Shown here piece by piece: positions 3,933-30,875 of a stretch of 32,000 nucleotides of DNA (the first letter of the stretch is position 1; each line of letters opens with the position of its first letter). This DNA is from Pararhizobium sp. IMCC21322 (lineage in GTDB: Bacteria; Pseudomonadota; Alphaproteobacteria; Rhizobiales; GCA-2746425). Position numbers and translations under genes: made by a program. The notes below the pieces were generated by a model. It was given only the letters and a program-made list of their open reading frames with translations, was not told the origin of the DNA and searched no databases. Where the stretch lies: assembly GCF_030758295.1 (NCBI RefSeq), contig NZ_CP132335.1, positions 812,412 to 844,411 of the forward strand, read 5' to 3'.

Positions 3933-4301
3933 ATGCTACGCGTTTTCCACCGGTCGCCAGCAACATCACTTCCCGAAAAAAGCCTCGTCGATACGGTTAA
4001 CAACCGTCGCGCAGGCCGCTATCGATGGGGGATGGGGGTGACTACTGACAGACACGACGATGAGCCGCCACGTAGTGCAAGTCTGACGGCCTATGACCGG
4101 ACTCATCTGAAACTGTACCTGCGTCTGCTCGACGCCGAGGCGGATGGGGCGGCATGGCAAGAGATCGTACAAGTCCTGTTCGATATTGATCCCACTATCC
4201 ATCCCGACCGCGCCCGCCGCATGCATGACGCCCATCTTGCCCGCGCGCGCTGGATGACCGAACAGGGCTATCGCGATCTCCTTTGGGGCGCACGGCATTG
4301 A
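3933..4301 (+). CDS. Stand-alone DUF2285-like protein, a paralogue of the C-terminal domain of the downstream activator; the true start is possibly ATG 4032
   Basis: The C-terminal LKLYLRLLDAEADGAAWQEIVQVLFDID....ARWMTEQGYRDLL parallels LSLMIRAADGVACHASHRQIAAVLFGRH....IDGGYRDIL of ORF 4691..5191. The N-terminal 33 aa of the listed ORF look non-conserved. Confidence 0.65.
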   Translation: MLRVFHRSPATSLPEKSLVDTVNNRRAGRYRWGMGVTTDRHDDEPPRSASLTAYDRTHLKLYLRLLDAEADGAAWQEIVQVLFDIDPTIHPDRARRMHDAHLARARWMTEQGYRDLLWGARH

Positions 4302-4422: not shown

Positions 4423-5191
4423 ATGGCGCTTGACCCAAACCAGTGGCGGTCCGATGCCGCCTACGCCTATCTGGACGACCTCAATGCCGAAGGTCTGGCG
4501 TGGGAATGCCTGCGCCGAAACACCGGCTATCAGGATGAATATGCCGCCGCCCAAATCGGGAAGATCGATGGTGATGCTGTCGACGACCTGATCAGGCGGC
4601 ACTGGGGGTTACGATTTCGCGACGCGTCCGGACTGCACTGCACTCGACGAAATCATCTATTGGTCACCGGTAATCGACACTGCGACGGTTATGTTGGCCG
4701 CAACATCCCCGACTATCGGTATGGTTGCCGAGCAATCGATCTTACTCGATCCTTCGTCGGTTCGCTCAGCCCCTGACGGATTGTATGCCCGCCATGGCGA
4801 TGGGCCATCTGCGGTCTATTCCGTGGTGTTGGGGCAACGAGAACTTGTTCCGACCGCAACAGTCATCGTCCCTCTTGACGCAGATAGTCCGGACCGCCTT
4901 GCCGCCGCTGGTCGGCTCTGGCGTGTGCTCAACGGCATAGCCGCACCGGACACACGCCTCACGCCCCAACGTCGCAAACGGCTCAGTCTTATGATCCGCG
5001 CCGCAGATGGCGTTGCATGCCATGCGTCCCATCGTCAGATCGCAGCCGTGCTATTTGGCAGACATCGCGTCGCTGCCGAACTCTGGCACGAGTCCTCGCT
5101 GCGCTACACGACTATCCGGCTGTGTCGGAACGGTCAGGCGATGATCGACGGCGGCTACCGCGATATTCTGCGTCACCGCAGACGAGCGTAG
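4423..5191 (+). CDS. fseA: FseA-like activator with an N-terminal DUF6499-type motif and a C-terminal DUF2285 domain, encoded in two frames. Segment 4423..4617 (frame 1) joins 4619..5191 (frame 2) through a putative +1 ribosomal frameshift. The alternative is a frameshifted pseudogene.
   Basis: Frame 1 gives MALDPNQWRSDAAYAYLDDLNAEGLAWECLRRNTGY...RHWGLRF and then an unnatural Cys/Arg/His-rich tail. Frame 2 is open from 4592 and reads ATRPDCTALDEIIYWSPVIDTATVMLAATSP... through to the DUF2285 end. The junction is CGA-TTT-C at 4612-4618. A GGAGGAGAGG ribosome-binding site precedes ATG 4423; the listed start at 4411 is TTG. Confidence 0.6.
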
Positions 5192-5368: not shown

Positions 5369-5650
5369 ATGTCAGCAAATACCGCCCACCTGCCGCCACG
5401 CTACCTGAGAACGCCAGAAGCGGCGCACTTCCTCAGTCTGTCCGGGCGTACTTTGGAGAAGCATCGCACGTACGGAACAGGACCCGCGTACCGTAAGCTC
5501 GGCGGCCGGGTCGTTTATTCGGTGGAGGACCTGCAGGCCTGGGCGGACCGCGGCGCGGTCACCTCGACCTCCGATCCGCGAGGATCGGTCCTTCCCGCCA
5601 AGCGCCATGACGATGCGTCGCTCGCTCCAAGTGACGGCGAGCCGCGCTGA
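5369..5650 (+). CDS. Excisionase/MerR-type helix-turn-helix (HTH_17-like) DNA-binding protein, in the position of a recombination directionality factor or transfer-operon regulator
   Basis: PRYLRTPEAAHFLSLSGRTLEKHRTYGTGPAYRKLGGRVVYSVEDLQAWAD is the typical excisionase-family HTH pattern. A GGAGG lies 7 nt upstream of the ATG. Confidence 0.75.
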   Translation: MSANTAHLPPRYLRTPEAAHFLSLSGRTLEKHRTYGTGPAYRKLGGRVVYSVEDLQAWADRGAVTSTSDPRGSVLPAKRHDDASLAPSDGEPR

Positions 5651-5658
5651 GCTTTCTC

Positions 5659-6738
5659 ATGTTGCGCAAGTCACAATCCAGATCCGAGCGTGCCCAGCTG
5701 GAGCTTTTCTATGCTTCCAGCGCCGATCCTGCCCCGCGCGATGCGCAGGATTTGATGGCATATCCCTTCTTCAGCCTGTCCAAAACGCACCGCACCCGCC
5801 CGATCGACTATGACGTCGCAGGTGTCGTAATCCGCGTCGAAGCGGTCCCCGAGCACGGGATGGCGACGATCTGGGATGCGGACATCCTGATCTGGGCCGC
5901 AAGCCATTTGGTCGAGGCCCGCGATGCCGGGCTGCGGACATCGCGCCTGATGGCGGCGACGCCCTATGAAATCCTGACCTTCATCGGTCGCGGCGTCAGT
6001 TCGCGCGACTATCAGCGTCTCAAGGCGGCTCTCGACCGCCTACAATCGACCACCGTCGCGACGACCATACGCCAACCCGCGTCAGGGCGGCGCCACCGTT
6101 TCTCCTGGATCAACGAATGGGTCGAGCGCACCGACCACCGCGGCAAGCCTGCCGGTGTCGAGTTGATCGTGCCGGACTGGTTCTATCGCGCGGTGCTCGA
6201 CGATGCGCTAATCCTCACCATTGACCGTGCTTACTTCTCCCTCACGGGAGGGTTCGACCGCTGGCTTTACCGCGTCGTTCGCAAGCACGGCGGACGGCAA
6301 CGGAACGGTTGGCGTTTCGAGTTACGTCATCTCTATCTGAAGTCGGGCAGCCTCTCTCCGTTCAAACGCTTCGCGTTCGAATTACGCGATATCGTCCGCC
6401 GTCAGCCATTGCCCGGCTACGTCCTGTCGATCGAAGTCGAGATCGGCGGCAAAACGTTGCTCGCCTTCGAGCCTGCGAGCGTCCCGGCACCTTGTGGACA
6501 ATCTGTGGATGGCCTCGTGCTATCGGGAACCCGGCCTATCGTGCCATCGGGAACCGGAGTGTCGTGCTATCGGGAACCGAAACCGGCGCTAACACCCCGC
6601 ACCAAAAGAGCAAATCGCACCCTTAACTTAGAGTCTAACTCAGAATCTAACTCTTGTAGTGGGCGTGCGGCTGTGAACAACGCTGCCCCGGCAGACGACA
6701 TCGGAGACAATGATGCTTCTTCGGGAACTGCGTCATGA
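5659..6738 (+). CDS. repA: Replication initiator protein A (RPA family) with an unusual ~80-aa C-terminal tail encoded by repeat DNA
   Basis: RDAQDLMAYPFFSLSKTHRTRPIDYD...IWDADILIWAASHL...DRAYFSLTGGFDRWLYRVVRKHGG matches my recollection of the RPA family. The tail after ..LLAFEPAS is low-complexity and overlaps the iteron array. Confidence 0.8.
   Translation: MLRKSQSRSERAQLELFYASSADPAPRDAQDLMAYPFFSLSKTHRTRPIDYDVAGVVIRVEAVPEHGMATIWDADILIWAASHLVEARDAGLRTSRLMAATPYEILTFIGRGVSSRDYQRLKAALDRLQSTTVATTIRQPASGRRHRFSWINEWVERTDHRGKPAGVELIVPDWFYRAVLDDALILTIDRAYFSLTGGFDRWLYRVVRKHGGRQRNGWRFELRHLYLKSGSLSPFKRFAFELRDIVRRQPLPGYVLSIEVEIGGKTLLAFEPASVPAPCGQSVDGLVLSGTRPIVPSGTGVSCYREPKPALTPRTKRANRTLNLESNSESNSCSGRAAVNNAAPADDIGDNDASSGTAS
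6493..6658. other. Origin-like array: two DnaA-box-like 9-mers, three iterons, then an AT-rich block of three tandem 12-mers
   Basis: TGTGGACAA (6493-6501) matches 8/9 and TGTGGATGG (6504-6512) matches 7/9 to the complement of TTATCCACA. The iterons span 6516-6578. The tandem 12-mers ttaacttagagt / ctaactcagaat / ctaactcttgta occupy 6623-6658, the most AT-rich stretch of this gene. Confidence 0.5.
6516..6578. repeat. Three 16-bp direct repeats (iteron-like): cgtgcTatcgggaacc, cgtgcCatcgggaacc, cgtgcTatcgggaacc
   Basis: The copies lie at 6516-6531, 6540-6555 and 6563-6578, with spacings of 24 and 23 bp. Copy 3 is read in a different codon phase from copies 1 and 2 (VLSGT / VPSGT / CYREP), so conservation is at DNA level rather than protein level. 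Confidence 0.8.
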
Positions 6739-7256
6739 ACTCACCCGCAGCATTCAAGAAAGGTGCGCAACGCGAGGCGACTGACCGTCAGTCGGACGCC
6801 CTTACCCATGTCGAATTGATCTGGTTCGAGAAGCGAACCGAATACTGGATCCGCTTTGGCCAACAAGCCGGTGAGCGCGTCATCGATCGCCGTCGCCGCG
6901 TCGTCAGCTTCGCGCCCGGACAGGTTTTTGCGTTCGTCCGCTGGGCATCGAACGACTACGGCACTGTCCTCTCTTGCATCGATATCTTGCGCGCCGTCTG
7001 TCGCGGTGAGCCATATCAGACGCTGCCGTCCGTGCAGCCCGGCGGCGATGTTTTACTGACCATCACGGGGTGGCCGAAGGTTGAACGGGTGTTGCAGGTC
7101 ATCGATGCGATCGAGGCATTTGGCATCGATCCGGTCGATGTCACGCCCGACCATTGGCGGCACGTGCACAACCGGATGGCTGCACGCCAGACACCGCGCA
7201 CCTACACGCAAACCCGCCATGCCGCCTGGATCAAACGTCGGAGGGTGGGCCGATGA
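6735..7256 (+). CDS. DUF2840 domain protein
   Basis: THVELIWFEKRTEYWIRFG...FAFVRWASNDYGTVLSCIDILRAV fits DUF2840 as I remember it. The start overlaps the repA stop codon (ATGA at 6735-6738). Confidence 0.75.
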   Translation: MNSPAAFKKGAQREATDRQSDALTHVELIWFEKRTEYWIRFGQQAGERVIDRRRRVVSFAPGQVFAFVRWASNDYGTVLSCIDILRAVCRGEPYQTLPSVQPGGDVLLTITGWPKVERVLQVIDAIEAFGIDPVDVTPDHWRHVHNRMAARQTPRTYTQTRHAAWIKRRRVGR

Positions 7257-7795
7257 AACGCCGCGCATGGTCGCTTATCGGTGCTGCGGCAGTTGGCGCG
7301 ATTGCCTTTCCGGCGTTTGTCGAAACACCCGATACCTTCATCTGGAACGTCACGCCGTCCGCGCCTATCGGACTCTACGAAGTGCGACCTGTCGCGCAGC
7401 TTCAAAGGACCGAACTGGTCGTCCTCGAAGCTCCACAACCGCTCGAAAGTTTCCTCGCCGAACGCGGCTATCTGCCGCCGAATATTCCCCTCCTGAAGCG
7501 CGTCGTCGGTGTGCCGGGGCAGACCGTCTGCCGTATCGGTCGCACCATCACCGTCGACGGCACTGTGATGGGTAACGCTCAACAGCGCGACAGTTTCGGG
7601 CGTCCGATGCCGGTCTGGAGCGGATGCCAGCGCATCGCTCCAAATGAAATTTTTCTCATGAATCGCGACGCCGAGAACAGTCTCGACGGGCGATATTTCG
7701 GACCCGTTCCCGCCCATTCGATCACCGGCTTGGCGGTCCCAGTGTGGACCATCGAGCCCGGCACGGGCCGTTACCGCTGGCGCGCCGCCCAATGA
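7253..7795 (+). CDS. traF: Conjugative S26-family signal peptidase TraF
   Basis: An N-terminal signal-anchor (MKRRAWSLIGAAAVGAIAF) is followed by NVTPSAPIGLY, LLKRVVGVPGQ and NSLDGRYFGPVP peptidase S26/TraF motifs. ATG 7253 overlaps the DUF2840 stop codon (ATGA). The listed start at 7154 is an off-frame overlap. Confidence 0.85.
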   Translation: MKRRAWSLIGAAAVGAIAFPAFVETPDTFIWNVTPSAPIGLYEVRPVAQLQRTELVVLEAPQPLESFLAERGYLPPNIPLLKRVVGVPGQTVCRIGRTITVDGTVMGNAQQRDSFGRPMPVWSGCQRIAPNEIFLMNRDAENSLDGRYFGPVPAHSITGLAVPVWTIEPGTGRYRWRAAQ

Positions 7796-7841
7796 ACGGC
7801 ACGCCGAACCTCCCACCAACGCCAGATGAAAGGACATTCCC

Positions 7842-8180
7842 ATGGCACATATCGGACATTTCACGCGCACCAAAGATGGTTATCGAGGCCACCTGAAAAC
7901 GCTCACCCTCGACGCCGAACTCACCCTCGTTCCGGCAGAGCAAACCGACGCCGAGAATGCACCCGACTACCGGGTTCACATCGGTGCAGACATGGAAGCC
8001 CATGAAATCGGTGCAGGTTGGAAACGCACCGGCGAGAAGGCTGGCGACTATGTTTCGCTGGTGATCGATGATCCGGCTTTGCCGCATCCGATCCATGCGA
8101 ACTTGTTCCACTCGGTCAGCGAGAACGAAACCTATTTGCTGACCTGGAACCGGCCGCGCAAACGCCGCGAAAATGGGTAA
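7842..8180 (+). CDS. DUF736 domain protein (copy 2)
   Basis: MAHIGHFTRTKDGYRGHLKTLTL..NAPDYRV..GAGWKRTGEKAGDYVSLVIDDPALPHPIHANLF..YLLTWNRP has the same motif order as copy 1 at 3142..3462. Confidence 0.85.
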   Translation: MAHIGHFTRTKDGYRGHLKTLTLDAELTLVPAEQTDAENAPDYRVHIGADMEAHEIGAGWKRTGEKAGDYVSLVIDDPALPHPIHANLFHSVSENETYLLTWNRPRKRRENG

Positions 8181-8184
8181 GGCG

Positions 8185-8943
8185 ATGCGCAACGCTCATC
8201 ACCGCACGACTGCCGGACATCAACAGATCGTCCGGTTCGTCGCCCTCCTTCTCCTTTCCGGCCTGCTCGTCGGTGCCGCCCTGCCGTCCGTCACAGTCGC
8301 GCAGCGCGCTTCGATAGAGCGCCCGGCCGCCGATCCCTATGCCGCGCATATTGCAGAGGCGTCGCAGAGATTCCGCATCCCCGAGCGCTGGATACGCGCC
8401 GTCATGCGCGTCGAAAGCGCTGGCCGGGTGCGGGCGGTGTCCAGCGTGGGCGCGATGGGCCTGATGCAGATCATGCCAGGCACTTGGGCGGGACTTCGTA
8501 TCCGCCACCGACTTGGCCGCGACCCCTTCGATCCGCGCGACAACATTCTTGGCGGCACGGCGTACCTGCGCGAGATGTACGACCGGTTCGGTTCGCCCGG
8601 TTTCCTCGCGGCCTACAATGCCGGTCCTGGACGCTACGAAGATCATCTCGCGACCGGTCGGGCGCTGCCACGCGAGACGCGCGCCTACATGGCGACCCTG
8701 TTGCCGATGATTGGTTTAGCGTCGTCGAATGGCTCCTCGACAACCGTGCCCGCACCACCGGATTGGCGCGAAGCTCCGCTGTTCGTCGAACGCTCCGAAC
8801 GTAAATCGACTGCAAATCCCGTGCAGCAAGAACGCCGAACGTCTGGAGTCCCGCCGACGCCTCCAGCACGCAACCGCGACGCGCAAAGCGAGCAACCGGA
8901 CGGCATCTTTATCGCCCAGTCACGCGATGAGAGGACACCATGA
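8185..8943 (+). CDS. Lytic transglycosylase (SLT domain) with signal peptide; the alternative start is 8173
   Basis: AVMRVESAGRVRAVSSVGAMGLMQIMPGTWAGL...GGTAYLREMYDRFG..LAAYNAGPGRY carries the catalytic ES and the GLMQ and AYNAG motifs. Confidence 0.9.
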   Translation: MRNAHHRTTAGHQQIVRFVALLLLSGLLVGAALPSVTVAQRASIERPAADPYAAHIAEASQRFRIPERWIRAVMRVESAGRVRAVSSVGAMGLMQIMPGTWAGLRIRHRLGRDPFDPRDNILGGTAYLREMYDRFGSPGFLAAYNAGPGRYEDHLATGRALPRETRAYMATLLPMIGLASSNGSSTTVPAPPDWREAPLFVERSERKSTANPVQQERRTSGVPPTPPARNRDAQSEQPDGIFIAQSRDERTP

Positions 8944-9076
8944 TGATCGCAATCGCATTTCGCACTTTCGGAGGCAGCAGCGCAGTACGGCGTGTGTTGA
9001 GGGGAAAGGTCAGAAATTGGGAGAGGGGATGGCGAGATAAAAGGGCACGATGTGCGCCTCGGTTGTGGGGTGTGTT

Positions 9077-9140
9077 TTCAAAGGGTTATGCTTTGAATTC
9101 ACGAGGTGCGCTTGAACAGCGCAGCCTGCATCCATCCTGC
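9077..9140 (+). promoter_or_regulatory. Candidate oriT: two hairpins followed by an ATCCTG/C nick-type motif in the 245-bp gap upstream of the relaxase gene
   Basis: IR1 is ttcaaag-ggttatg-ctttgaa (9077-9097). IR2 is tgcgct-tgaac-agcgca (9107-9123). ATCCTGC at 9134-9140 matches the conserved nick core of RP4 oriT and Ti T-DNA borders (MOBP/VirD2-type relaxases). Confidence 0.5.
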
Positions 9141-9187
9141 TTTCCGAGTGATTTCAATACGTTTGCGCGATGTGCGGGTTTCGCACC

Positions 9188-10927
9188 ATGAGCAACGACG
9201 ATGATTTCCACATCCGCCCTGGCCGCATTCGGTCATCGTCAAGTCAGCGCGCGCGGCCCTTCGTTGCTCAGGCCTTAGCTGCAGCACAGCGTGCTGGCGG
9301 CAATGTCTCGCGCTCGGGAAAGATCACGCCGGGCAATCGCTCATATTTTGGGCGCGGCAAGCGTGCCAGCGTGCAGGCCAATCGCTGGCTAACCAGCAGA
9401 TCGCGCAACGCCGTCATCAAGACCCGTGTCGTTCGGCACAACGCTCGAAGCGCTCCCTTAGCAACCCATCTCACTTACCTGCGCCGCGAGGGCGTCACCC
9501 GTGATGGGGAGAAGGCAAAGCTGTTCGGTCCAGACATCGAAGAGATCGCTCCAAGCGAGTTCGCTGAACGGTGTGAAGACGACCGCCACCATTTTCGGTT
9601 CATCGTGTCGCCGGAGGACGCAGTAGAGATGACAGACCTTAAATCCTTCACCCGCGATCTGATGCGTCAGGCGGAAAAGGATCTGGGCACCAAACTCGAT
9701 TGGGTCGGTGTCGATCACTGGAATACCGAGCACCCACATATCCATGTCATCGCACGCGGGCGTGCCGACGATGGCGAAGACCTCGTTATTGCCCGCGATT
9801 ACATCAAGGATGGGATGCGTGCCCGCGCGCAGGATCTGATTTCGCAGGAGCTCGGCCTTCGCACTGACCGGGATATCCAGAATACCCTCGAACGACAGAT
9901 CGATGCTGAGCGCTGGACCAGTTTGGACCGACAGCTCGCGCGCGACGGTGAGCGCTCAGGCGTAATTGACCTCGCCCCACGTCGCGGCGGGCAGCTCGAC
10001 GGTCTCCAGGCTCTGAAAGTCGGACGCCTGCGCAGGCTGGAAAAGCTGAACCTCGCCGATCAAATTGGTCCCGGACAATGGGTGATGAAGGACACCGCCG
10101 AGACGACCTTGCGTGAATTGGGCGAGCGCGGCGATATCATCAAACGCATCCACCGCGGGTTGACCGAACGCGGCATCGAACGCGGTACATCGAGCTATGT
10201 CCTGGCAGGCGAAAGGATCGACCATCCCGTCATCGGACGGCTTGTCGATCGTGGTCTCGACGATGAACTCATGGGAACGGCTTATGCAGTGATCGACGGT
10301 GTCGATGGCCGCACCCATCATATCAAACTACCCCACATTGACGCCGCCGGAGACAACACGCTGGGATCGATCGTTGAGTTGCGCAAGTTCGAGGACCGCA
10401 GAGGCCGAGCACGGGTCGCGCTAGCCGTGCGGTCCGATCTGTCCATCGAGAAGCAGGTGAGGGCAACCGGCGCGACCTGGCTGGATCGGGAAGCCATCGC
10501 CCGGGAACCGAGCGCGCTTGGCAGTGGCGGATTCGGCGCGGAGGTCTCTGCCGCACTGGATCGACGTGCCGACCATCTGATCGAAGAAGGCTTGGCCAAA
10601 CGGCAAGGGCAATGCGTCATCTTCAATCGTAATTTGCTCAATACGCTGCGCCAACGCGAACTGACGAATGTTGGTGAGACGCTCGTGACCGAGACCGGGC
10701 TCCCCCAGAAGCAATCCGCGGCAGGCGAGTATGTGGCCGGCATCTATCAGCGGCGCGTTGCATTGGCCTCGGGCCGCTTCGCCATGATCGGCGACGAGCT
10801 CGGCTTCCAGCTCGTGCCCTGGACACCCTCCATCGAAAAGCATCTCGGCCAGCACGTCTCAGGCATCGCCCGCAGCAATGGCGGTGTCGATTGGGATTTC
10901 GGCCGCAAGCGCGGGATCGGGCTGTAG
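9188..10927 (+). CDS. Relaxase/mobilization nuclease (VirD2/MOBP-like N-terminus, DUF3363-type C-terminus)
   Basis: The start MSNDDDFHIRPGRIR is typical of the family, and the 3-His motif DHWNTEHPHIHVIARG is present. Its position directly upstream of traG fits. Confidence 0.85.
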   Translation: MSNDDDFHIRPGRIRSSSSQRARPFVAQALAAAQRAGGNVSRSGKITPGNRSYFGRGKRASVQANRWLTSRSRNAVIKTRVVRHNARSAPLATHLTYLRREGVTRDGEKAKLFGPDIEEIAPSEFAERCEDDRHHFRFIVSPEDAVEMTDLKSFTRDLMRQAEKDLGTKLDWVGVDHWNTEHPHIHVIARGRADDGEDLVIARDYIKDGMRARAQDLISQELGLRTDRDIQNTLERQIDAERWTSLDRQLARDGERSGVIDLAPRRGGQLDGLQALKVGRLRRLEKLNLADQIGPGQWVMKDTAETTLRELGERGDIIKRIHRGLTERGIERGTSSYVLAGERIDHPVIGRLVDRGLDDELMGTAYAVIDGVDGRTHHIKLPHIDAAGDNTLGSIVELRKFEDRRGRARVALAVRSDLSIEKQVRATGATWLDREAIAREPSALGSGGFGAEVSAALDRRADHLIEEGLAKRQGQCVIFNRNLLNTLRQRELTNVGETLVTETGLPQKQSAAGEYVAGIYQRRVALASGRFAMIGDELGFQLVPWTPSIEKHLGQHVSGIARSNGGVDWDFGRKRGIGL

Positions 10928-10946
10928 CGCCCGGAAAGGAAAAGAG

Positions 10947-12932
10947 ATGAACGCGACAAAAATTCTCTGGGGCCAGATCGTCTTCGTATCGATGATCGTT
11001 CTCGGTACGACATGGGCGGCAACGCAGTGGACAGCCTGGCGGCTGGGGTTCCAGCCGCAGCTTGGAATGCCATGGTTCGACCTGCTCGGATGGCCGGTCT
11101 ACTACCCGCCGGCGTTCTTCTGGTGGTGGTATGCCTATGACGCCTATGCGCCGCCGATCTTCATCGAAGGCGCGTTCATTGCCGCATCGGGCGGGTTCCT
11201 CGCCGTTGCCGTGGCGATCACCATGTCGGTCTATCGCGCCCGGGAAGCGGAGAACGTCGCCACCTACGGATCGGCCCGTTGGGCGGACCAGAATGAGATC
11301 AGGAAGGAGGGCCTGCTCGGCTCAGATGGTGTGGTGCTGGGACAACTGAGCCAAGAATATTTACGCCACGATGGTCCCGAGCACGTCCTGTGCTTCGCGC
11401 CGACGCGGTCCGGCAAGGGAGTGGGTCTCGTGATCCCGACGCTTCTTGCCTGGCCGGGCTCGGCCATCGTCCACGACATCAAGGGGGAGAACTGGCAGAT
11501 CACTTCGGGGTTCCGTGCAAAACACGGAACGGTGCTGCTGTTCGACCCAACCAATTCCAAATCGTCCGCTTACAATCCGCTGCTCGAAGTACGCCGCGGC
11601 GAATGGGAAGTGCGCGACGTCCAGAATATCGCCGACATCCTAGTGGACCCAGAAGGCTCGTTGGAAAAACGCAATCACTGGGAGAAGACAAGCCACGCGC
11701 TGCTCGTCGGCGTGATCCTGCATGTCCTCTATGCCGAGGAGAACAAAACGCTGGCCGGTGTTGCGGCCTTTCTCTCCGATCCGAAGCGCCCAATAGAAAC
11801 GACGCTCCGGGCGATGATGGCAGCAGCACATCTCGGCGATGCTGGCCCGCATCCCGTTGTCGCCAGTGCGGCGCGTGAACTCCTGAACAAATCCGATAAT
11901 GAACGCTCGGGCGTCCTGTCGACTGCCATGTCGTTCCTCGGCCTCTACCGCGATCCCGTCGTCGCCAAGGTGACGCGCCAATGCGACTGGCGCATCTCCG
12001 ATCTCGTCGAAAGCGAGCGGCCGGTTACACTCTACCTTGTCGTCCCGCCTTCTGACATCAACCGGACCAAACCGCTGATCCGGCTGATCCTGAATCAGAT
12101 TGGGCGGCGGCTGACTGAGGATCTGCAAAGTCACGCCAGGCGACACCGCCTGCTTCTGATGCTGGACGAGTTTCCCGCGCTGGGACGCCTCGACTTTTTC
12201 GAAAGCGCTCTGGCCTTCATGGCAGGCTATGGCCTGAAGGCGTTTCTAATCGCGCAGTCTCTCAACCAGATCGAGAAGGCTTACGGACCGAACAATTCGA
12301 TCCTCGACAATTGCCACGTTCGGGTGAGCTTCGCGACCAACGACGAGCGCACTGCAAAGCGCGTTTCCGACGCGCTCGGTACAGCAACCGAGATGCGCGC
12401 GATGAAAAACTATGCGGGCCACCGGCTGTCGCCATGGCTCGGGCACCTGATGGTCAGCCGACAGGAGACTGCGCGCGCCTTGTTGACGCCCGGCGAAGTC
12501 ATGCAACTGCCCCCAACCGACGAGATTGTCATGGTCGCAGGCATCGCGCCGATCCGCGCGCAGAAGGCGCGTTATTATGAAGATCCGCAGTTCCAGCAGC
12601 GTGTTCTGCCGCCACCTGCCCTTGAAAATACAACGGCTACGAAGACGGATCCCTGGACCGAAATGCCAATACCGGTGCAGCCGGATGGCATGGAAGAAAA
12701 TGAAAGCGAACAACGAGAGGACGAAGACACCACTGGCTCCGAACCCCGTCGTCAACCCGAGCTGGAACGAACGAACCCCACCCCACCGAAAGCGCCCGCA
12801 CAGAACGAGTTCGATCTCGATCCGCACGACGATGATGGCGAGGATCCCGCGCAACTGCGCAATTTGAATGCCCGCGTTCGGCAGGTCGCGCGTCAGGCGT
12901 CGATGAACCCTGACGACGGCATCGACATGTGA
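10947..12932 (+). CDS. traG: Type IV coupling protein TraG (VirD4 family)
   Basis: N-terminal TM segments are followed by Walker A (FAPTRSGKGVGLVIPT) and Walker B (LLLMLDEFPALG). GGAAAGGAAAAGAG precedes ATG 10947. The listed start at 10878 overlaps the end of the relaxase gene. Confidence 0.9.
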   Translation: MNATKILWGQIVFVSMIVLGTTWAATQWTAWRLGFQPQLGMPWFDLLGWPVYYPPAFFWWWYAYDAYAPPIFIEGAFIAASGGFLAVAVAITMSVYRAREAENVATYGSARWADQNEIRKEGLLGSDGVVLGQLSQEYLRHDGPEHVLCFAPTRSGKGVGLVIPTLLAWPGSAIVHDIKGENWQITSGFRAKHGTVLLFDPTNSKSSAYNPLLEVRRGEWEVRDVQNIADILVDPEGSLEKRNHWEKTSHALLVGVILHVLYAEENKTLAGVAAFLSDPKRPIETTLRAMMAAAHLGDAGPHPVVASAARELLNKSDNERSGVLSTAMSFLGLYRDPVVAKVTRQCDWRISDLVESERPVTLYLVVPPSDINRTKPLIRLILNQIGRRLTEDLQSHARRHRLLLMLDEFPALGRLDFFESALAFMAGYGLKAFLIAQSLNQIEKAYGPNNSILDNCHVRVSFATNDERTAKRVSDALGTATEMRAMKNYAGHRLSPWLGHLMVSRQETARALLTPGEVMQLPPTDEIVMVAGIAPIRAQKARYYEDPQFQQRVLPPPALENTTATKTDPWTEMPIPVQPDGMEENESEQREDEDTTGSEPRRQPELERTNPTPPKAPAQNEFDLDPHDDDGEDPAQLRNLNARVRQVARQASMNPDDGIDM

Positions 12933-13559: not shown

Positions 13560-14471
13560 CTACGCCACCATTGTAGCAATAGCAGTGTCGAGAGAAACAA
13601 TCCCTGTTCTGTGATCGATTCCCGCATCATTGATAAAACTAATATGTCCCGAGTTAAGGCCCTGAGTCATCTCGACAAACCCATTCACAGCTACGGTTGA
13701 AAACCCTGCATTAGACAACGCCTCAGGCCACGCTGATTCAGACAGTGCAATAGGAACAACTATTTTTTCAAGCGCTTGGGTTAAACTATTTGCAACATCT
13801 TTTGGCGAATACCTGGCAGGTCCTTCCAGCTCAATTATCCTTACTTTGTACCAGTCTTCACATAAAGCTGCAGCAGCCATGCGCCCGATATCTTTAGTGG
13901 AAATCATTGGCAGTTTTTGCTCAACCGGTGCAAGAAAGCTGCGTAGTTCGCCATGTGTAGCGGCTTGAACTAAAGGGCTCCAATTCTCCATGAAATAAGC
14001 TGCGCGAAGAAATGTTACGGGTAATCCAGTTTGACCCAAAAACTTCTCAAGCGTTCTGTTCATGGCAATCCATCCTGTACCATCTGATTTATCAGCTCCT
14101 ATCGATGATAGAGCTACAACTTTCTTAAGTTGCGCATTGGCGACGGCTTCAGCGATGTTATGTGCCATGACTTCAGATTGCTCGAAAAGGTCATTCGAAT
14201 CATATTGCGGCGGACTGATTATATAAGCACGATCACCACCAGATAAGGCGCTACTTAAAGCCAATAAGTCAGTGAAGTCCGCGAGAACCACCTCTGCTCC
14301 TTGACTGGCCCATAGACCTCCTTTGGAATCGTCGCGCACCACAACCCGCACTCGCTTCCCCGCTTTTAATAAAGCGTGGGCTGCAGCCGAGCCAGTGCGT
14401 CCGCTAACACCAGTGACAACATATAATTCATTTTTATCGATCGGTTTCTTTTTTTCACGAAATGTTTGCAT
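13560..14471 (-). CDS. NmrA-family / atypical SDR NAD(P)-binding oxidoreductase
   Basis: An N-terminal Rossmann motif (VVTGVSGRTGSAAAHALLKAGKRVRVVVRD) is followed by ..LSSIGAD...FLRAAYFMENW, typical of NmrA-like proteins. Confidence 0.8.
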   Translation of the reverse strand: MQTFREKKKPIDKNELYVVTGVSGRTGSAAAHALLKAGKRVRVVVRDDSKGGLWASQGAEVVLADFTDLLALSSALSGGDRAYIISPPQYDSNDLFEQSEVMAHNIAEAVANAQLKKVVALSSIGADKSDGTGWIAMNRTLEKFLGQTGLPVTFLRAAYFMENWSPLVQAATHGELRSFLAPVEQKLPMISTKDIGRMAAAALCEDWYKVRIIELEGPARYSPKDVANSLTQALEKIVVPIALSESAWPEALSNAGFSTVAVNGFVEMTQGLNSGHISFINDAGIDHRTGIVSLDTAIATMVA

Positions 14472-24728: not shown

Positions 24729-24980
24729 ATGGCTAAGCTGAAACTCGGATCGATCGTGGATGATAAGCCGGTGAAACTTACCGTAGAGTTGCCTGCTGCC
24801 GTGCATCGCGATCTTGTGGCCTACGCCGAGATCCTGGCGCATGAGACCGGCGGAGCGCCGGCCGTCCCAGCCAAGTTGATCGCACCGATGGTTGCCCGGT
24901 TTATGGCAACCGATCGTGGATTCGCAAAGGCGCGGCGGATGTCTACGAAGACGGATCCTTCGCCGACATCACGTGCATGA
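24729..24980 (+). CDS. DUF2274 domain protein, the usual last gene of this trb operon type
   Basis: The sequence is MAKLKLGSIVDDKPVKLTVELPAAVHRDLVAYAEILAHETG...LIAPMVARFMATDRGFAKARR. The listed ORF 24375..24980 shares the frame but its N-terminal part overlaps trbI. Confidence 0.8.
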   Translation: MAKLKLGSIVDDKPVKLTVELPAAVHRDLVAYAEILAHETGGAPAVPAKLIAPMVARFMATDRGFAKARRMSTKTDPSPTSRA

Positions 24981-25899
24981 GTTCAGTCTCAGTTTGTTTG
25001 CTACGACCAATACCGTTTTGATGGGCCATTGCTTTGGCAAGACTCAGCATACGACGAAATGCAGGATTGTCGTTGCGTGGCGACCAAACCGCACAGAAGG
25101 GGAGTGTCTCGCCATCAAGCGGCCTGTAGACGACACCGGGAAATTGAGCCGCGATGGTCGACTCGCTCGTTAGAGTCAGCCCCCGGCCAAATGAGACGAT
25201 CTGCATCAGATTGTCACGACCGACACGGTGGCGCTCAATCGATGGTTGTACCCCCAAATCGGCCAGATGCTTTACCAAGAAGTCCTGGATTTCCGGGCCC
25301 GGATCGCTCTCGCTCACGACGAATGCCTCGCCGTATAGATCGCGCCAACGGAGGGAGGCTCGTTTCGCTAAATCGTGAGCACGCGGCAAAACAACGAACA
25401 CGCGCTCGGTCCAGAATTGAGAGGCGTCGCAGTCGGACAACATTGGTACACCCGTGACGAAGGCAACATCTAGGTTGTGGAGACGCACTGCAGAGATATG
25501 GTCAGACGGCGCCCCTTCGACAATATCGATCCGCACATCGCCGTATCGTGAGCAGTAAGTGTGTAACAACCGAGCAAGAAAACCAGACGCGAGAGACGAG
25601 AATATCCCCATCCGAATGGCTCCTCTTTCGCCGCGACCAATCAATCCGATACCCACCGCCGCATGTGAAATTTCGCTCAATGCTTGCTGGGCGTGACGGA
25701 CGAATTTCTTGCCAGCGTGAGTCAGAATGACGCCGCCGGAATGCCGGATGAAAAGAGCAGCTCCTATCTCGTCTTCGAGGTCACGGATACGCCTGCTCAC
25801 CGCAGATTGTTCGATCTCAAGTGTTTTCGCTGCTTGGCGAAAGCTTCCGCATTTGGATGCGGCAACGACGTAGCGCAGATGTCGCACCTCAATCCTCAT
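24943..25899 (-). CDS. LysR-family transcriptional regulator (copy 1)
   Basis: The gene starts at MRIEVRHLRYVVAASKCGSFRQAAKTLEIEQSAVSRRIRDLEDEIGAALF (LysR HTH). The listed 447-aa ORF extends upstream into the MFS gene in another frame. The 3' end overlaps the DUF2274 gene by 38 nt. Confidence 0.85.
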   Translation of the reverse strand: MRIEVRHLRYVVAASKCGSFRQAAKTLEIEQSAVSRRIRDLEDEIGAALFIRHSGGVILTHAGKKFVRHAQQALSEISHAAVGIGLIGRGERGAIRMGIFSSLASGFLARLLHTYCSRYGDVRIDIVEGAPSDHISAVRLHNLDVAFVTGVPMLSDCDASQFWTERVFVVLPRAHDLAKRASLRWRDLYGEAFVVSESDPGPEIQDFLVKHLADLGVQPSIERHRVGRDNLMQIVSFGRGLTLTSESTIAAQFPGVVYRPLDGETLPFCAVWSPRNDNPAFRRMLSLAKAMAHQNGIGRSKQTETELMHVMSAKDPSS

Positions 25900-25943
25900 C
25901 GGAATAGACCGCACCATCGAATGCTGAATATTGTGATCACTAT

Positions 25944-27098
25944 TCACGACGGTGCGGCTCCTTCCTTCTCCGTGGATGATACTGGCATGAGCGACACTAT
26001 TGCAGCGCACAGCAGTGCAATGGCCAAAACCGCGACCCATACAGCCGAAACGCCGTAAGCAAGCGAGGCAAGACCCGTTGCCGCTGCAACGCCCAGGTTC
26101 ATCGCGCTCATCGCGAAGGCCATCAGCGTACCGCGACGTTCGGCGGACAATGCAGCAATGTGCGTCTGAAGAGCGGGCGCACCGACACCGCCCAACAACG
26201 CCCAGGCCGCCAATGCTGCACAAACAAGGATGAGAGGCGCAATATCCAGTGCGTAAATCACTACAATCGCGACCAGCACAAAGCATAATGCGACGCGCAT
26301 GATGCGGCGTCCGGAACCGAACAGTCGAACTGCGGATGGCATTAAGAAGTTTCCGGCAAAAGTCAGCAATCCGAAACCGGCGTATATCAATCCGATCGTA
26401 CCGGTTCCGAGCTCGAACTGATCCCTCAGCCGCTCGCCAACCAGAGCAAACATTCCAATGGCACCACCAAGTCCAAGCCCCATCGCGATCAAGGCGCCGA
26501 TCGCGCCAGGCACAAAGAGCTGCCCGTCGTCGGGTAATGCACTTGTCTTTGTGGCCATGGACTTACGACTGAGAAAGCCAAAAAGAGCGATCGGGAGTGC
26601 AAGGACACCCAAACCCGCAAATGCCGATCGCCAAGATATATACTGAGTGGCCAATGCACCGATGCTGGGACTGAGGATTATGCCAAGCGTTAAACCCGAG
26701 GTCACAACTGCGATGGCTTTCGCGCCTTTGGCCTCGCCTTCATCGCCGGCCAACGCAAATGCGACAGGCAACATTCCGGCACTGGCGGCTCCCGTGACGA
26801 CACGCGTAAGCAACCCCAGTTCAAAGCTGTTGACCAACGAAGTCGCGATCGAAGCTATTGCGAACACCAGCGAGGCTGGCGCCAGTACTGTCACGCGCCC
26901 GAACCTGTCCGACAAGTTGCCGAAAATCGGAGCAAGCAGGGCCAGTGGTAAACTGTAGGCCGCCACGAACAGGACGACGCGTTCGGGAGGAACGCCGAGA
27001 TCACTACCGATCGGTGTGAGGATTGGACCAAGTAGAAATTCGTCAGCGCCGACGAGAAAGGCGATCAGGAATAGAAGTATCAGGCGGGGAAGTGGCAT
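25944..27098 (-). CDS. MFS transporter (12-TM type)
   Basis: From MPLPRLILLFLIAFLVGADEFLLGPILTPIGSDLGV..., the FGNLSDRFGR motif (MFS loop 2-3) and repeated hydrophobic helices are present. Confidence 0.85.
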   Translation of the reverse strand: MPLPRLILLFLIAFLVGADEFLLGPILTPIGSDLGVPPERVVLFVAAYSLPLALLAPIFGNLSDRFGRVTVLAPASLVFAIASIATSLVNSFELGLLTRVVTGAASAGMLPVAFALAGDEGEAKGAKAIAVVTSGLTLGIILSPSIGALATQYISWRSAFAGLGVLALPIALFGFLSRKSMATKTSALPDDGQLFVPGAIGALIAMGLGLGGAIGMFALVGERLRDQFELGTGTIGLIYAGFGLLTFAGNFLMPSAVRLFGSGRRIMRVALCFVLVAIVVIYALDIAPLILVCAALAAWALLGGVGAPALQTHIAALSAERRGTLMAFAMSAMNLGVAAATGLASLAYGVSAVWVAVLAIALLCAAIVSLMPVSSTEKEGAAPS

Positions 27099-27483
27099 GG
27101 TGTTTGCTCTCTTTGTTCGGGTGTGAACGAAGAGATGCCGCGAATGAGTCCATGCGGGTGGTGACAGCTTCACGCTTGCTTTCCAACTCGGCAATCAGCC
27201 GGTCGATTTGCTCACGCTTATGCTGCAAATCCGCTAGACCGCCTTCACATGCACCAGCGCCGTCATCGCTCAGGCATGGGGCCATGGCGAGTATTTCGCG
27301 GGTCGAAAAGCCAGTCGCAATCAGGTCTCGCACACGCTCGGCGCGCCGAAAATCGCTCTCGTTATAGACGCGATATCCATTACTCCCGCGCTCCGGATTA
27401 AGTAGACCGGTCGCTTCGTAATGGCGAAGAGTTCGCTGACTGACACCGAGGCGATTGGCGAGTTCCTGAATCTGCATTTGCAT
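27043..27483 (-). CDS. MerR-family transcriptional regulator with a Cys-x8-Cys loop
   Basis: IQELANRLGVSQRTLRHYEATGLLNPERGSNGYRVYNESDFRRAERVRDLIATGFS is a MerR HTH. The C-terminal CLSDDGAGAC resembles the CueR-type metal loop. The 3' end overlaps the MFS start by 56 nt. Confidence 0.85.
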   Translation of the reverse strand: MQMQIQELANRLGVSQRTLRHYEATGLLNPERGSNGYRVYNESDFRRAERVRDLIATGFSTREILAMAPCLSDDGAGACEGGLADLQHKREQIDRLIAELESKREAVTTRMDSFAASLRSHPNKESKHHATSPPDTSIPDRLSRRR

Positions 27484-27551
27484 CCCTTCCCGACCCTCTT
27501 ACGGGGTTAACACTAGCGTCAATGTCAAGCCTGATAATTGGAGTTTTAATA

Positions 27552-28481
27552 TCAAGGGCCCGCCATGGCTCGATGCGTCGAGCTGTTGCATAGACTATTG
27601 CGTCGCGCCATCACTCTGGCGAGACTGAGCAACCGGCGCAGCGCCGGATTATCATTCTTCGGTGACCAGATGGCGCAGAAGGGAAGTGCCTCGCCGGCTA
27701 ACAAACGATAGACGACGCGTGGGAACTTCGTACCGGTCGTTGCTTCGCTGGTGAGCGTCAGGCCCTTTCCCAATGAGACGAGCTGCATGAGATTATCACG
27801 ACCGACCGCGCAGTATTCGACGCTCGGATGGTAGCCGGGAAGCGACAAATGTTTGACGAGAAAATCGTGAATCTCGGGACCAGGATCGCTTCGACTGACG
27901 ATGAAATGGCGATTGCGGAGATCATTCCAAGCAATCTCGGCGAGGTTGGCCAACTTATCTGCTTCGGGAAGCACGACGAAGACGCGCTCCGTCCAAAGGT
28001 GCTGTCCCTCGCAGTCAGGCGGTGCAAAAGGCCCGGTAAGGAACGCGATGTCTAGCTTGAAATGGCGGATGGCTGAAAGATGCTCTCTGGGTGAGCCTTC
28101 GATGAAATCAAGACGAACATCGGTATGTCGTTGCTCGTAAGCACGCATTAGATCTGCGATAAATCCCGAAGAGATGGATGAAAAGATACCAACCCGGACG
28201 ATACCGGCATTGCCGCAGCCATGCGCATTTACCAGACTGGCCGCACGTTCGATCTGCCCCACGACGCGCCTGGCGTGCTCAAGAAAACCCTCTCCAGCAA
28301 AGGTCAGCTCGACGCCGCCAGAATGGCGGTTGAACAACGACGCCCCAAGCTCCTCTTCCAGGTCGCGGATACGCCGACTGATCGCGGACTGATGGACTCC
28401 GACAATGCTCGCCGCCCGCCGAAAGCTATGGTGTTCGGCAGCGGCAATAACGTAGCGGAGATGCCTCAGTTCAACTCTCAC
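27552..28481 (-). CDS. LysR-family transcriptional regulator (copy 2, paralogue of copy 1), probable GTG start
   Basis: VRVELRHLRYVIAAAEHHSFRRAASIVGVHQSAISRRIRDLEEELGASLF aligns position by position with copy 1. The GTG at 28479-28481 corresponds to the Met of copy 1. The listed start at 28628 would overlap the aldo/keto reductase gene. Confidence 0.8.
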   Translation of the reverse strand: MRVELRHLRYVIAAAEHHSFRRAASIVGVHQSAISRRIRDLEEELGASLFNRHSGGVELTFAGEGFLEHARRVVGQIERAASLVNAHGCGNAGIVRVGIFSSISSGFIADLMRAYEQRHTDVRLDFIEGSPREHLSAIRHFKLDIAFLTGPFAPPDCEGQHLWTERVFVVLPEADKLANLAEIAWNDLRNRHFIVSRSDPGPEIHDFLVKHLSLPGYHPSVEYCAVGRDNLMQLVSLGKGLTLTSEATTGTKFPRVVYRLLAGEALPFCAIWSPKNDNPALRRLLSLARVMARRNSLCNSSTHRAMAGP

Positions 28482-28504
28482 ATTACATTGGGTGGTATTT
28501 CCGT

Positions 28505-29539
28505 TCACACCACTGGTGGGTTGAGCCGGGCAAAACCTTCCTGTCTGCGGTAAGGGAAATAGGGATAGGGTGCCGTCACCACACTCGCTGCGTCGAGCTT
28601 GACAATTTGATCTGGTGTTAGCTTCCAACCGACCGCTCCGAGATTGTCACGAAGCTGTTTCTCATTTCGCGCGCCGATGATGACGGATGAGACGGTCGGA
28701 CGTTGCAGCAGCCAATTGATCGCGATCTGAGGTATGGTTTTGCCCGTTTCCTGGGCAACGTCGTCGAGCGCATCGACAATATCGAACAGTCGTTCGTCAT
28801 CGACCGGAGGGCCAAATTCGGCCGTCTGATGCAAACGGCTCCCTTCCGGTATCGGCTGGCCGCGCCGGATCTTTCCAGTCAGCCGACCCCAACCGAGCGG
28901 GCTCCAGACCATTGCGCCGACGCCTTGATCTACACCAAGAGGCATCAACTCCCACTCGTAATCACGACCCACCAGAGAATAGTAGACCTGATGCGCTACA
29001 TAGCGCGACCGACCATGTTTCTCAGACAAGCCCAGCGATTTCATGACCTGCCAGCCGGAGAAATTCGAGACGCCGATATATCGAACCTTTCCAGCATGCA
29101 CGAGGTCATCGAGCGTGGAGAGAACCTCTTCGATAGGTGTGCCAGCATCGAAAGCGTGGAGTTGGAGAAGATCGATATAGTCAGTGCCGAGCCGGCGGAG
29201 CGCATTTTCAACTGACCGGATCAGACGCGAGCGGGAAGAACCGGAATCATAGGGTCCGTCGCCCATCGGCAACGCCGTTTTGGTGGAAATGAGCACCTTG
29301 TCGCGCCGGCCCTTGATGGCTTCGCCGAGCACTTCCTCCGAAGCCCCGTCGGAATAGACGTCGGCGGTATCGAAAAGGTTGACCCCCGCATCCAGGCAAA
29401 TGTCGACAAGATGTCGCGCTTCTTTTGCGTCGGTGTCACCCCAAGCGCCAAATAGAGGGCCGGAGCCGCCGAATGTTCCCGCGCCGAAGCTCAATGCCGG
29501 GACTTTGAGGCCGGACCTGCCAAGAGAACGATATTCCAT
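28505..29539 (-). CDS. Aldo/keto reductase
   Basis: MEYRSLGRSGLKVPALSFGAGTFGG...NLFDTADVYSDGASEEVLGEAIKGRRDKVLISTK and ..IGVSNFSGWQ.. are AKR signatures. An AAGGA ribosome-binding site lies upstream of the ATG. Confidence 0.9.
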   Translation of the reverse strand: MEYRSLGRSGLKVPALSFGAGTFGGSGPLFGAWGDTDAKEARHLVDICLDAGVNLFDTADVYSDGASEEVLGEAIKGRRDKVLISTKTALPMGDGPYDSGSSRSRLIRSVENALRRLGTDYIDLLQLHAFDAGTPIEEVLSTLDDLVHAGKVRYIGVSNFSGWQVMKSLGLSEKHGRSRYVAHQVYYSLVGRDYEWELMPLGVDQGVGAMVWSPLGWGRLTGKIRRGQPIPEGSRLHQTAEFGPPVDDERLFDIVDALDDVAQETGKTIPQIAINWLLQRPTVSSVIIGARNEKQLRDNLGAVGWKLTPDQIVKLDAASVVTAPYPYFPYRRQEGFARLNPPVV

Positions 29540-29574
29540 GAGATATTCCTTTCAGATTTTTAAACAGGGACCAA

Positions 29575-30870: not shown

Positions 30871-30875
30871 TGCTC

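Follow-up and report, generated by a model that had tools for sequence, protein, structure and literature searches.

A probable iteron-type replication origin overprinted by repA in a Tn4371/ICEMlSymR7A-type conjugative element of Pararhizobium

Here we describe a compact repeat array at the 3′ end of the replication initiator gene repA in Pararhizobium sp. IMCC21322, where repA forms part of a conjugative element related to known integrative and conjugative elements (ICEs). The array lies in a 32,000-nucleotide stretch of contig NZ_CP132335.1 (positions 812,412 to 844,411 of the forward strand; hereafter the window, whose own numbering is used throughout), and an earlier note made from these letters alone had pointed to it as origin-like. 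We propose that positions 6491–6680 are probably the cis-acting, iteron-type vegetative origin of replication (oriV) of the adjacent PF10134 RepA, overprinted by an extension of the repA open reading frame (ORF). Judged by its backbone gene order, the element is of the Tn4371/ICEMlSymR7A type. To go by the loci compared below, the array of the wider family sits in non-coding DNA directly 3′ of repA, and a large alphaproteobacterial clade lacks that repA stop codon.

Structure of the array

5659–6738, + strand: repA ORF, 359 codons; PF10134 'RPA' (Replication initiator protein A) at aa 27–256, E = 1.4e-87
6493–6512, + strand: two TGTGGA boxes, DnaA-box-like, TGTGGACAA (6493–6501) and TGTGGATGG (6504–6512), 11 bp apart and abutting iteron 1
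6515–6531, + strand: iteron 1, TCGTGCTATCGGGAACC (repeat search)
6539–6555, + strand: iteron 2, TCGTGCCATCGGGAACC (repeat search)
6562–6578, + strand: iteron 3, TCGTGCTATCGGGAACC, in a codon phase different from that of iterons 1 and 2 (repeat search)
6622–6657, + strand: AT-rich block of three 12-mers, cttaacttagag / tctaactcagaa / tctaactcttgt, a candidate DNA-unwinding element (Tandem Repeats Finder, period 12, 2.5 copies)
6672–6680, + strand: third DnaA-box-like site, TGTGAACAA, beyond the AT-rich block (read from the sequence and from relatives)

The earlier note had reported three direct repeats spaced 24 and 23 bp, and these were recovered at 6515, 6539 and 6562, all in the same orientation and within a 17-bp unit, TCGTGCYATCGGGAACC, that includes the 16-mer given there. 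A fourth copy with three or fewer mismatches was not found within the 32-kb window, and none of 100 shuffles reached three iteron matches. Read in the repA frame, copies 1 and 2 give LVLSGT and IVPSGT and copy 3 gives SCYREP, which bears out the claim that the third repeat is translated in a different phase. The three AT-rich tandem 12-mers also described are present at 6622–6657, with a dip in G+C to 0.43 at 6590–6649 versus about 0.62 around it, and the repA ORF does run into DUF2840, its stop overlapping the DUF2840 start as ATGA (6735–6738). An Rfam scan of 6200–6900 returned no match at E≤1 and folding of the AT-rich block as single-stranded DNA gave z = −0.65; the idea that the array is an RNA element or a hairpin was therefore dropped.

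Conservation of the array as DNA

A scan of species-representative genomes provided a first set of 80 alphaproteobacterial loci, with RepA 71–87% identical to that of the window. Each of the 80 carries the 17-mer triplet at the same position, spaced 24/23 and with two or fewer mismatches per copy. This set is biased towards long-form RepA, and the finding that the array is covered by the ORF in 80/80 loci is inflated and gives no family-wide frequency, because tblastn places loci higher when their match extends through the tail. From a codon alignment of 64 non-redundant repA genes (pairwise nucleotide identity <95%, mean 76%), we obtained majority-base fractions at the first, second and third codon positions of 0.94/0.96/0.71 in the RepA domain and 0.90/0.92/0.90 in the array. 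Third positions thus differ strongly between the two regions (Mann-Whitney p = 4e-11), and 66% of them are at least 95% conserved in the array versus 8% in the RepA domain. Conservation is low, and codon periodicity absent, in the distal tail and in the spacer that separates the iterons from the 12-mers. From the pattern across array, spacer and distal tail, the last ~85 codons are unlike a protein under purifying selection. Aligning homologous loci had been set beforehand as the check on the claim that the repeats are conserved as DNA and not as protein, and the claim held, with the repeats kept throughout and synonymous sites as conserved as non-synonymous ones.

Other parts of the array are conserved to different degrees in the 64 loci. 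The TGTGGA cores are at least 97% conserved, CTTAACTTAGAGTCTAACnnAGAATCTAAC of the AT-rich block is near-invariant, likewise in loci without parA, and an exact TTWTNCACA is found at the box-1 position in 27/64 loci and at the box-3 position (+157 from iteron 1) in 30/64. RepA homologues in the protein database that are 74–98% identical (353–405 aa) share the motif CGQxVDGLV(L/P)SGTRxIV(P/L)SGTGxSC(Y/H)REPKP...NLESNxESN. The sole common iteron polymorphism is one Y (C/T) base; one reading frame turns it into L/P, the other into Y/H. Considering these codon-level patterns, protein conservation of the tail would be a shadow of DNA conservation.

Short-form relatives and iteron variants

BLASTP homology with short-form RepA ends at residue 272 (nt 6474), in LLAFEP, where the earlier note had placed the end of RepA homology (near LLAFEPAS), and about 87 further codons form an ORF extension over the array. 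After the PF10134 domain, 103 residues follow in the window protein versus about 25 in other family members. Among alphaproteobacterial relatives of similar identity, short (272–311 aa) and long (346–392 aa) RepA forms coexist. The extension of the long-form clade comprises about 80–130 codons, with a frame that is open across the array, a highly variable distal tail of 25–65 codons and, in nearly all loci, an ATGA overlap with the start of the next gene; the other two frames are interrupted by 194 and 358 stops across these 7,209 codons. The extension is no accident of the window and is common to a large alphaproteobacterial clade, open up to the ATG of the next gene. The ~80 trailing codons had been interpreted as read-through, and they do lack protein-like conservation, but their frame is kept open clade-wide and is not accidental. 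The extension peptide thus appears dispensable and the open frame maintained; as a guess, the frame is kept for translational coupling or for protection from Rho-dependent polarity in the rdfS-repA-...-traF operon.

Tn4371-type copies on plasmids, found by tblastn of plasmids, encode RepA about 60–66% identical to that of the window. The annotated RepA of Escherichia coli pECO-109b has 281 aa, its stop codon comes right after the end of homology, and the array then lies in the repA-parA spacer as CCTGTGGA, three copies of TCGTGCTATCAGGAGTAC at 24/23 spacing, an AT-rich tctaacttacctaac... block and a GGTGGACAA box. The same non-coding layout is present in Pseudomonas pBYT5-1, in M. ciceri pMc1192, which carries the array without parA, and in an alphaproteobacterial metagenome contig (L092) encoding a 295-aa RepA. 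Homology of the array is visible column by column in a five-way DNA alignment. At the place equivalent to box 3, DnaA-like 9-mers were found in pBYT5-1 (GGTGGATAA), pECO-109b (GGTGGACAA, as above) and L092 (TGCGGATAA), and the repA stop of L092 is the TGA within a CTGTGA box. A sigma-70 scan, which covers one promoter type, came out empty for the window array and for the non-coding arrays of pECO-109b and pBYT5-1; a parA promoter is therefore unsupported. A metagenome scan with short-form RepA yielded 80 loci, 72 of which extend far enough to be evaluated, and 68 of these 72 Tn4371-type loci have exactly three cores, at 24/23 spacing and all past the repA stop.

Across these elements the iteron has an invariant left half, CGTGCYATC, and a clade-specific right half with at least seven versions (GGGAACC, GGGGACC, AGGAACC, AGGAGTAC, AGGCGTGC, AGGCAACA and GGGCGCGC). 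All three copies of an element have the identical right half, and this concerted change is the pattern expected of sites for one co-evolving DNA-binding protein. The nearest RepA neighbour has the same right-half variant in 126/135 cases; this covariation was not counted as independent evidence because gene and array are physically linked. RepA residues ~229–238 (SGSLSPFKRF, window 6343–6372) vary more between clades than any other part of the domain, which is otherwise very conserved, and no position but column 234 (P/R/Q/K) cleanly sorts the iteron right-half groups, making this stretch, and column 234 within it, a candidate specificity determinant.

Nine loci (L051, L061, L063, L068, L070, L072, L076, L078 and L079) contain one extra, inverted iteron-like 17-mer, ATCGTGCGATCGGGAACC, with 1–2 mismatches (3 in L072). 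It lies about 3.07–3.17 kb past the repA stop, a little way into the 5′ end of the next gene (+ strand) after the SLT (lytic transglycosylase) gene, near the expected origin of transfer (oriT); the window has no such inverted copy. It could be a remote inverted iteron, as known from RK2, or a coding coincidence.

Comparison with known replicons

For comparison we examined true plasmids in which a PF10134 RepA, about 30% identical to that of the window, is the only replication gene.

10.9-kb Burkholderia plasmid: repA followed at ~100 bp by four ACCGTCTATCAGGGACC and then by two copies of an AT-rich repeat, CTAAATCTTTTAAA
P. aeruginosa plasmid: repA followed by 21-bp iterons and by AAAACTCTTTAAA repeats
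Paracoccus and Nitrosospira plasmids: iterons begin at or just past the repA stop
Gluconobacter plasmid: repA preceded by iterons
Phaeobacter plasmid: no iterons found

In plasmids L082 and L084 the iterons are followed by AT-rich repeats analogous to the window block. The Burkholderia iterons match the ICE core CTATCrGGGACC; their own core, CTATCAGGGACC, agrees with the ICE core of L092, CTATCGGGGACC, at 11/12 positions, and RepA is the only protein common to the plasmid and ICE contexts of the array. Placement of the origin inside its own initiator gene has precedents, since it is the arrangement of the RepA_N plasmids of Firmicutes. It is also that of repABC plasmids, where the origin lies within repC and has no iterons (PMC3155836; Azospirillum preprint). 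The initiators of both groups are unrelated to RepA, and here the overlap involves a dispensable, non-conserved tail that is polymorphic in the family, not a functional domain.

The PF10134 plasmid origins, for example those of pPDL2/pUT1 of Sphingobium and the pVS1 replicon, belong to the same initiator family as the window and, like it, combine 17–22 bp direct repeats at ~21–24 bp spacing beside repA with AT-rich repeats and DnaA-box-like sites. The repA gene of pPDL2 and its iteron/AT-rich/DnaA-box region replicate as a mini-replicon, and its RepA has RPA and Rep_3 domains (PMC3516476). Unlike these plasmids, the window has its replicon in a conjugative backbone (rdfS ... traF ... rlxS) and its array inside the repA ORF, whereas the pPDL2 oriV is upstream of repA. 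The 'stabilisation' module (repA-parA-parB) of Tn4371-family/ICEMlSymR7A-type elements has the same gene order and the same three-iteron array; in Tn4371-type elements the repA stop precedes the array and parA comes next, whereas in the window the array is inside the ORF, and parA has been deleted together with a small gene encoding a ribbon-helix-helix (RHH) protein. RK2 follows the same modular logic of iterons, DnaA boxes and 13-mer AT-rich repeats, and its Rep protein is reported to contact one strand of these repeats (PMC4081077, PMC4980987). It differs in its initiator (TrfA), in having at least five iterons and in an origin that is not within a gene.

Recurrent loss of parA

6682–6804, + strand: 123-bp segment without counterpart in L001, the closest parA-bearing relative; creates the repA/DUF2840 ATGA junction (blastn break 6681/6805 = L001 5011/6000)

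The earlier note had placed parA between repA and DUF2840 in related elements and described it as missing here. Indeed, about 60 of 76 evaluable loci have the order repA-parA-(small gene)-DUF2840; parA is absent from 16/76, about a fifth, and their junctions are of at least six types. In the window the 123-bp segment replaces ~988 bp of L001, comprising the repA tail end, parA, the small RHH gene and the 5′ end of DUF2840. Loci without parA (16) and with parA (60) show similar totals of iteron mismatches (1.44 vs 1.52) and AT-block mismatches (1.5 vs 1.0). Equal conservation of the array in the parA-less loci argues against a mere partition operator or centromere. Such recurrent, independent loss of parA with the array fully kept suggests that partition is dispensable for these elements and the origin is not.

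The small gene after parA (L092 4235–4489; the parA-DUF2840 gap of L001) encodes an RHH protein with a weak match to PF23807 (RHH_10), and together with parA it makes up a type Ib partition pair. Its product was formerly named truncated ParB.

Origin function and alternative explanations

Several features by which an oriV can be recognised come together at this locus. A cognate initiator gene is present in cis (PF10134 repA, with the array within or at its 3′ end), at least three same-orientation direct repeats are spaced about two helical turns apart (3 × 17 bp, 24/23), short AT-rich repeats are adjacent (three 12-mers), and the repeats change together within an element and vary with the initiator clade (at least seven right-half variants). 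Iterons and AT-rich repeats follow repA in several PF10134 plasmids and the pPDL2 region works as a mini-replicon; the window array is therefore read as a family-typical oriV. By analogy, the iterons would serve RepA, the 12-mers would act as the unwinding element and the flanking boxes would possibly be used by DnaA. Upon activation of the element, RepA would be made from the rdfS-repA operon and bind the three same-orientation 17-bp iterons at their 24 and 23 bp spacing. It would then open the AT-rich 12-mer block, possibly with host DnaA at the flanking TGTGGA boxes, after which the host replisome would load and the excised circle would be copied by theta replication.

Several observations weigh against an oriV at this site. 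Origin function and RepA binding at the array are what we infer from the family, and an origin placed in DNA that is transcribed and translated in the integrated element might just as well be retained for regulation through RepA binding. At ~36 bp the AT-rich block is short, and its G+C of 0.43 is only moderately low. The 9-mers described in the earlier note as DnaA-box-like are present and 11 bp apart, but their identity as DnaA boxes is uncertain: three one-mismatch matches to TGTGGATAA were observed in the window versus 2.7 expected, i.e. chance level, the window boxes carry 1–2 mismatches each, and 24/64 loci have no exact TTWTNCACA at the box-1 or box-3 position. Among the PF10134 plasmids, iterons lie upstream of repA in L090 and were not found in L087 and L088. 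An AlphaFold2 model of RepA from a 25-sequence alignment (homologues at least 62% identical) reached a predicted local distance difference test (pLDDT) of 37, too low to support a fold search or to confirm the winged-helix initiator fold (two winged-helix domains, WH1-WH2). The match of RepA to Rep3_N (E=0.018) is below threshold, and sequence and profile searches of the PDB with RepA gave no match at E≤10; the PF10134 RepA family has been called Rep_3-related (PMC8627217, PMC3516476). Finally, papers on these elements treat repA as a putative stabilisation or replication gene and, in the literature searched, mention no oriV.

The array could instead consist of RepA-binding sites without an origin role, serving titration, incompatibility, autoregulation or handcuffing, with replication elsewhere, for instance by rolling circle from oriT. 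ICEs do replicate from oriT using the relaxase (PMC4489591), nine relatives have the extra inverted iteron-like copy about 3.1 kb away, and DnaA boxes are imperfect in many loci. However, the AT-rich repeat block and the flanking DnaA-like boxes are conserved though unneeded for pure titration, and position and composition match the origins of autonomous PF10134 plasmids (PMC3516476), which leaves this explanation unlikely. The other half of the earlier proposal, a partition or promoter remnant left after parA loss, was framed as a reading in which the RHH protein binds the repeats and these serve the type Ib partition operon downstream (parA and the RHH gene) as its centromere or operator. 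Repeats of type Ib par loci are usually upstream of parA, and this counts in its favour, as do the position of the array immediately upstream of parA in most relatives, the small RHH gene after parA (PF23807, weak) and ACTC-like motifs within the 12-mers. Yet iterons and AT-rich block are equally conserved in the 16 loci that lost parA and the RHH gene through at least six deletion junctions, pMc1192 has the array and no parA, and the Burkholderia plasmid, which has no par genes alongside, carries homologous iterons past its repA. The succession of boxes, three same-orientation 17-mers, AT-rich repeats and a further box is moreover an oriV layout. We thus regard a par remnant as quite unlikely and favour the origin side of that proposal; the AT-rich block may have a second role in partition besides that in the origin.

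Far less probable is a functional C-terminal tail of RepA with peptide repeats (VLSGT, VPSGT, NLESN), the DNA repeats being a by-product. Tail motifs are kept in proteins down to 74% identity, and the ORF is open in the top 80/80 loci and ends exactly on the next start codon. Against such a tail, iteron 3 is in another reading frame, synonymous sites are conserved as much as non-synonymous ones, short and long forms coexist at similar identity, and the spacer and distal tail have no codon periodicity at all. In short-form relatives the same DNA is moreover non-coding or in other frames, reading SCYQEY twice after the stop in pECO-109b. That the array is oriT or a relaxosome accessory site is barely credible. 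Its location within a conjugation gene cluster would fit, but the relaxase gene starts 2.4 kb downstream, at 9170, and the array consists of direct repeats only, without inverted repeat or nick-site architecture. In ICEKKS102, of the Tn4371 family, oriT was cloned from the traF-traI intergenic region, not the repA region (PMC11448139), which also argues that the array is not oriT.

Genetic context of repA

5369–5650, + strand: HTH_17 (RdfS/excisionase-like) gene, Pfam PF12728, E=2e-8
6735–7256, + strand: DUF2840 gene (Pfam scan)
7253–7795, + strand: S26 TraF peptidase (Pfam scan)
after traF, + strand: DUF736, SLT (lytic transglycosylase), relaxase (9170–10927) and TraG/VirD4 genes (Pfam scans)

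ORF and Pfam scans delimit a single block of co-directional genes at 5369–12932, with trbB/E/L/G/I-type genes farther downstream of TraG/VirD4. The HTH_17 gene lies 9 bp upstream of repA, probably shares an operon with it, and precedes repA in 80/80 related loci. The Tn4371/ICEMlSymR7A gene order, rdfS(HTH_17)-repA-parA-(small gene)-DUF2840-traF(S26)-DUF736-SLT-relaxase-traG-trb, is complete in the window save for parA and the small gene. Mesorhizobium ICEs other than the symbiosis ones (ICESyms) have a replication initiator and a DUF2840 gene between rdfS and traF, as does Tn4371 (PMC8627217), and the RepA of Tn4371 is related to that of pVS1 (PMC2789088). No integrase was found among the scanned ORFs, with no search aimed at one, and the element ends are perhaps outside the window. 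The element family is abundant, with at least 594 and at least 572 confirmed loci in two collection scans; in two protein searches 7963/8000 and 7732/8000 candidate proteins were significant.

Two ORFs with RovC_DNA-bd (former DUF2285) domains (3933–4301 and 4691–5191) lie upstream of the excisionase-like gene, and related loci have DUF2285 genes in the same position. In ICEMlSymR7A the DUF2285 protein FseA activates rdfS. A YAcAr/SLOG-domain ORF upstream of the module (994–1935), an NmrA-like gene between traG and the trb genes (13560–14471), and LysR regulator, aldo/keto reductase and GDSL lipase genes after trbI (24943–31035) are probably cargo or flanking genes.

Further variation was seen at the end of repA and in its domain partners. 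In the parA-bearing loci among L002–L080 the last ~12 codons of repA, whose tail is not conserved elsewhere, end in (Q/E/R)LP(L/F)..(P/S)GG(A/R)x just before the parA ATGA overlap. GG(A/R) coincides with the parA ribosome-binding site (GGAGG), and QLPL/QLSF resembles a sliding-clamp-binding motif; the window repA has no such tail end. L071 has a 708-codon ORF that joins repA in frame to parA. P0134, a 505-aa protein with RPA and ParA domains labelled Fusarium oxysporum, is probably bacterial contamination of a fungal assembly, and P0125 and P0163 are proteins in which HTH_17 is fused to RPA.

Implications

Iteron origins beside a rep gene are textbook knowledge, and the carriage of repA and parA by these ICEs is already known. 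For the oriV of Tn4371-type/ICEMlSymR7A-type elements, or its overlap with the repA ORF, we found no description in the literature searched; the original Tn4371 paper (PMC169086) lies outside that literature, and an earlier description of the oriV is therefore possible. The analysis narrows a candidate oriV to about 190 bp for a very common element family, and plasmid-like replication of these ICEs after excision is now testable with a small clone. It also calls for caution in annotation, as ~80 residues of 'replication initiator protein A' look conserved only because the DNA beneath them carries a signal that is read in two frames, and domain models or structure predictions built on the RepA tail would mislead. 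The arrangement is not mechanistically surprising; it is widespread, and a clean case of apparent protein conservation that arises from an underlying DNA element.

Maintenance of this family of conjugative elements is usually ascribed to integration alone. A broader and rather speculative proposal, which we put forward tentatively, is that widespread proteobacterial conjugative elements carry a complete, selected RepA/iteron theta replicon. In one clade its origin would lie in the translated part of an excisionase-repA operon, with the extension selected for ribosomes on the mRNA (no Rho polarity, coupling) and not for the peptide. If this is true, transcription and translation through the origin upon activation could couple excision, RepA supply and origin firing.

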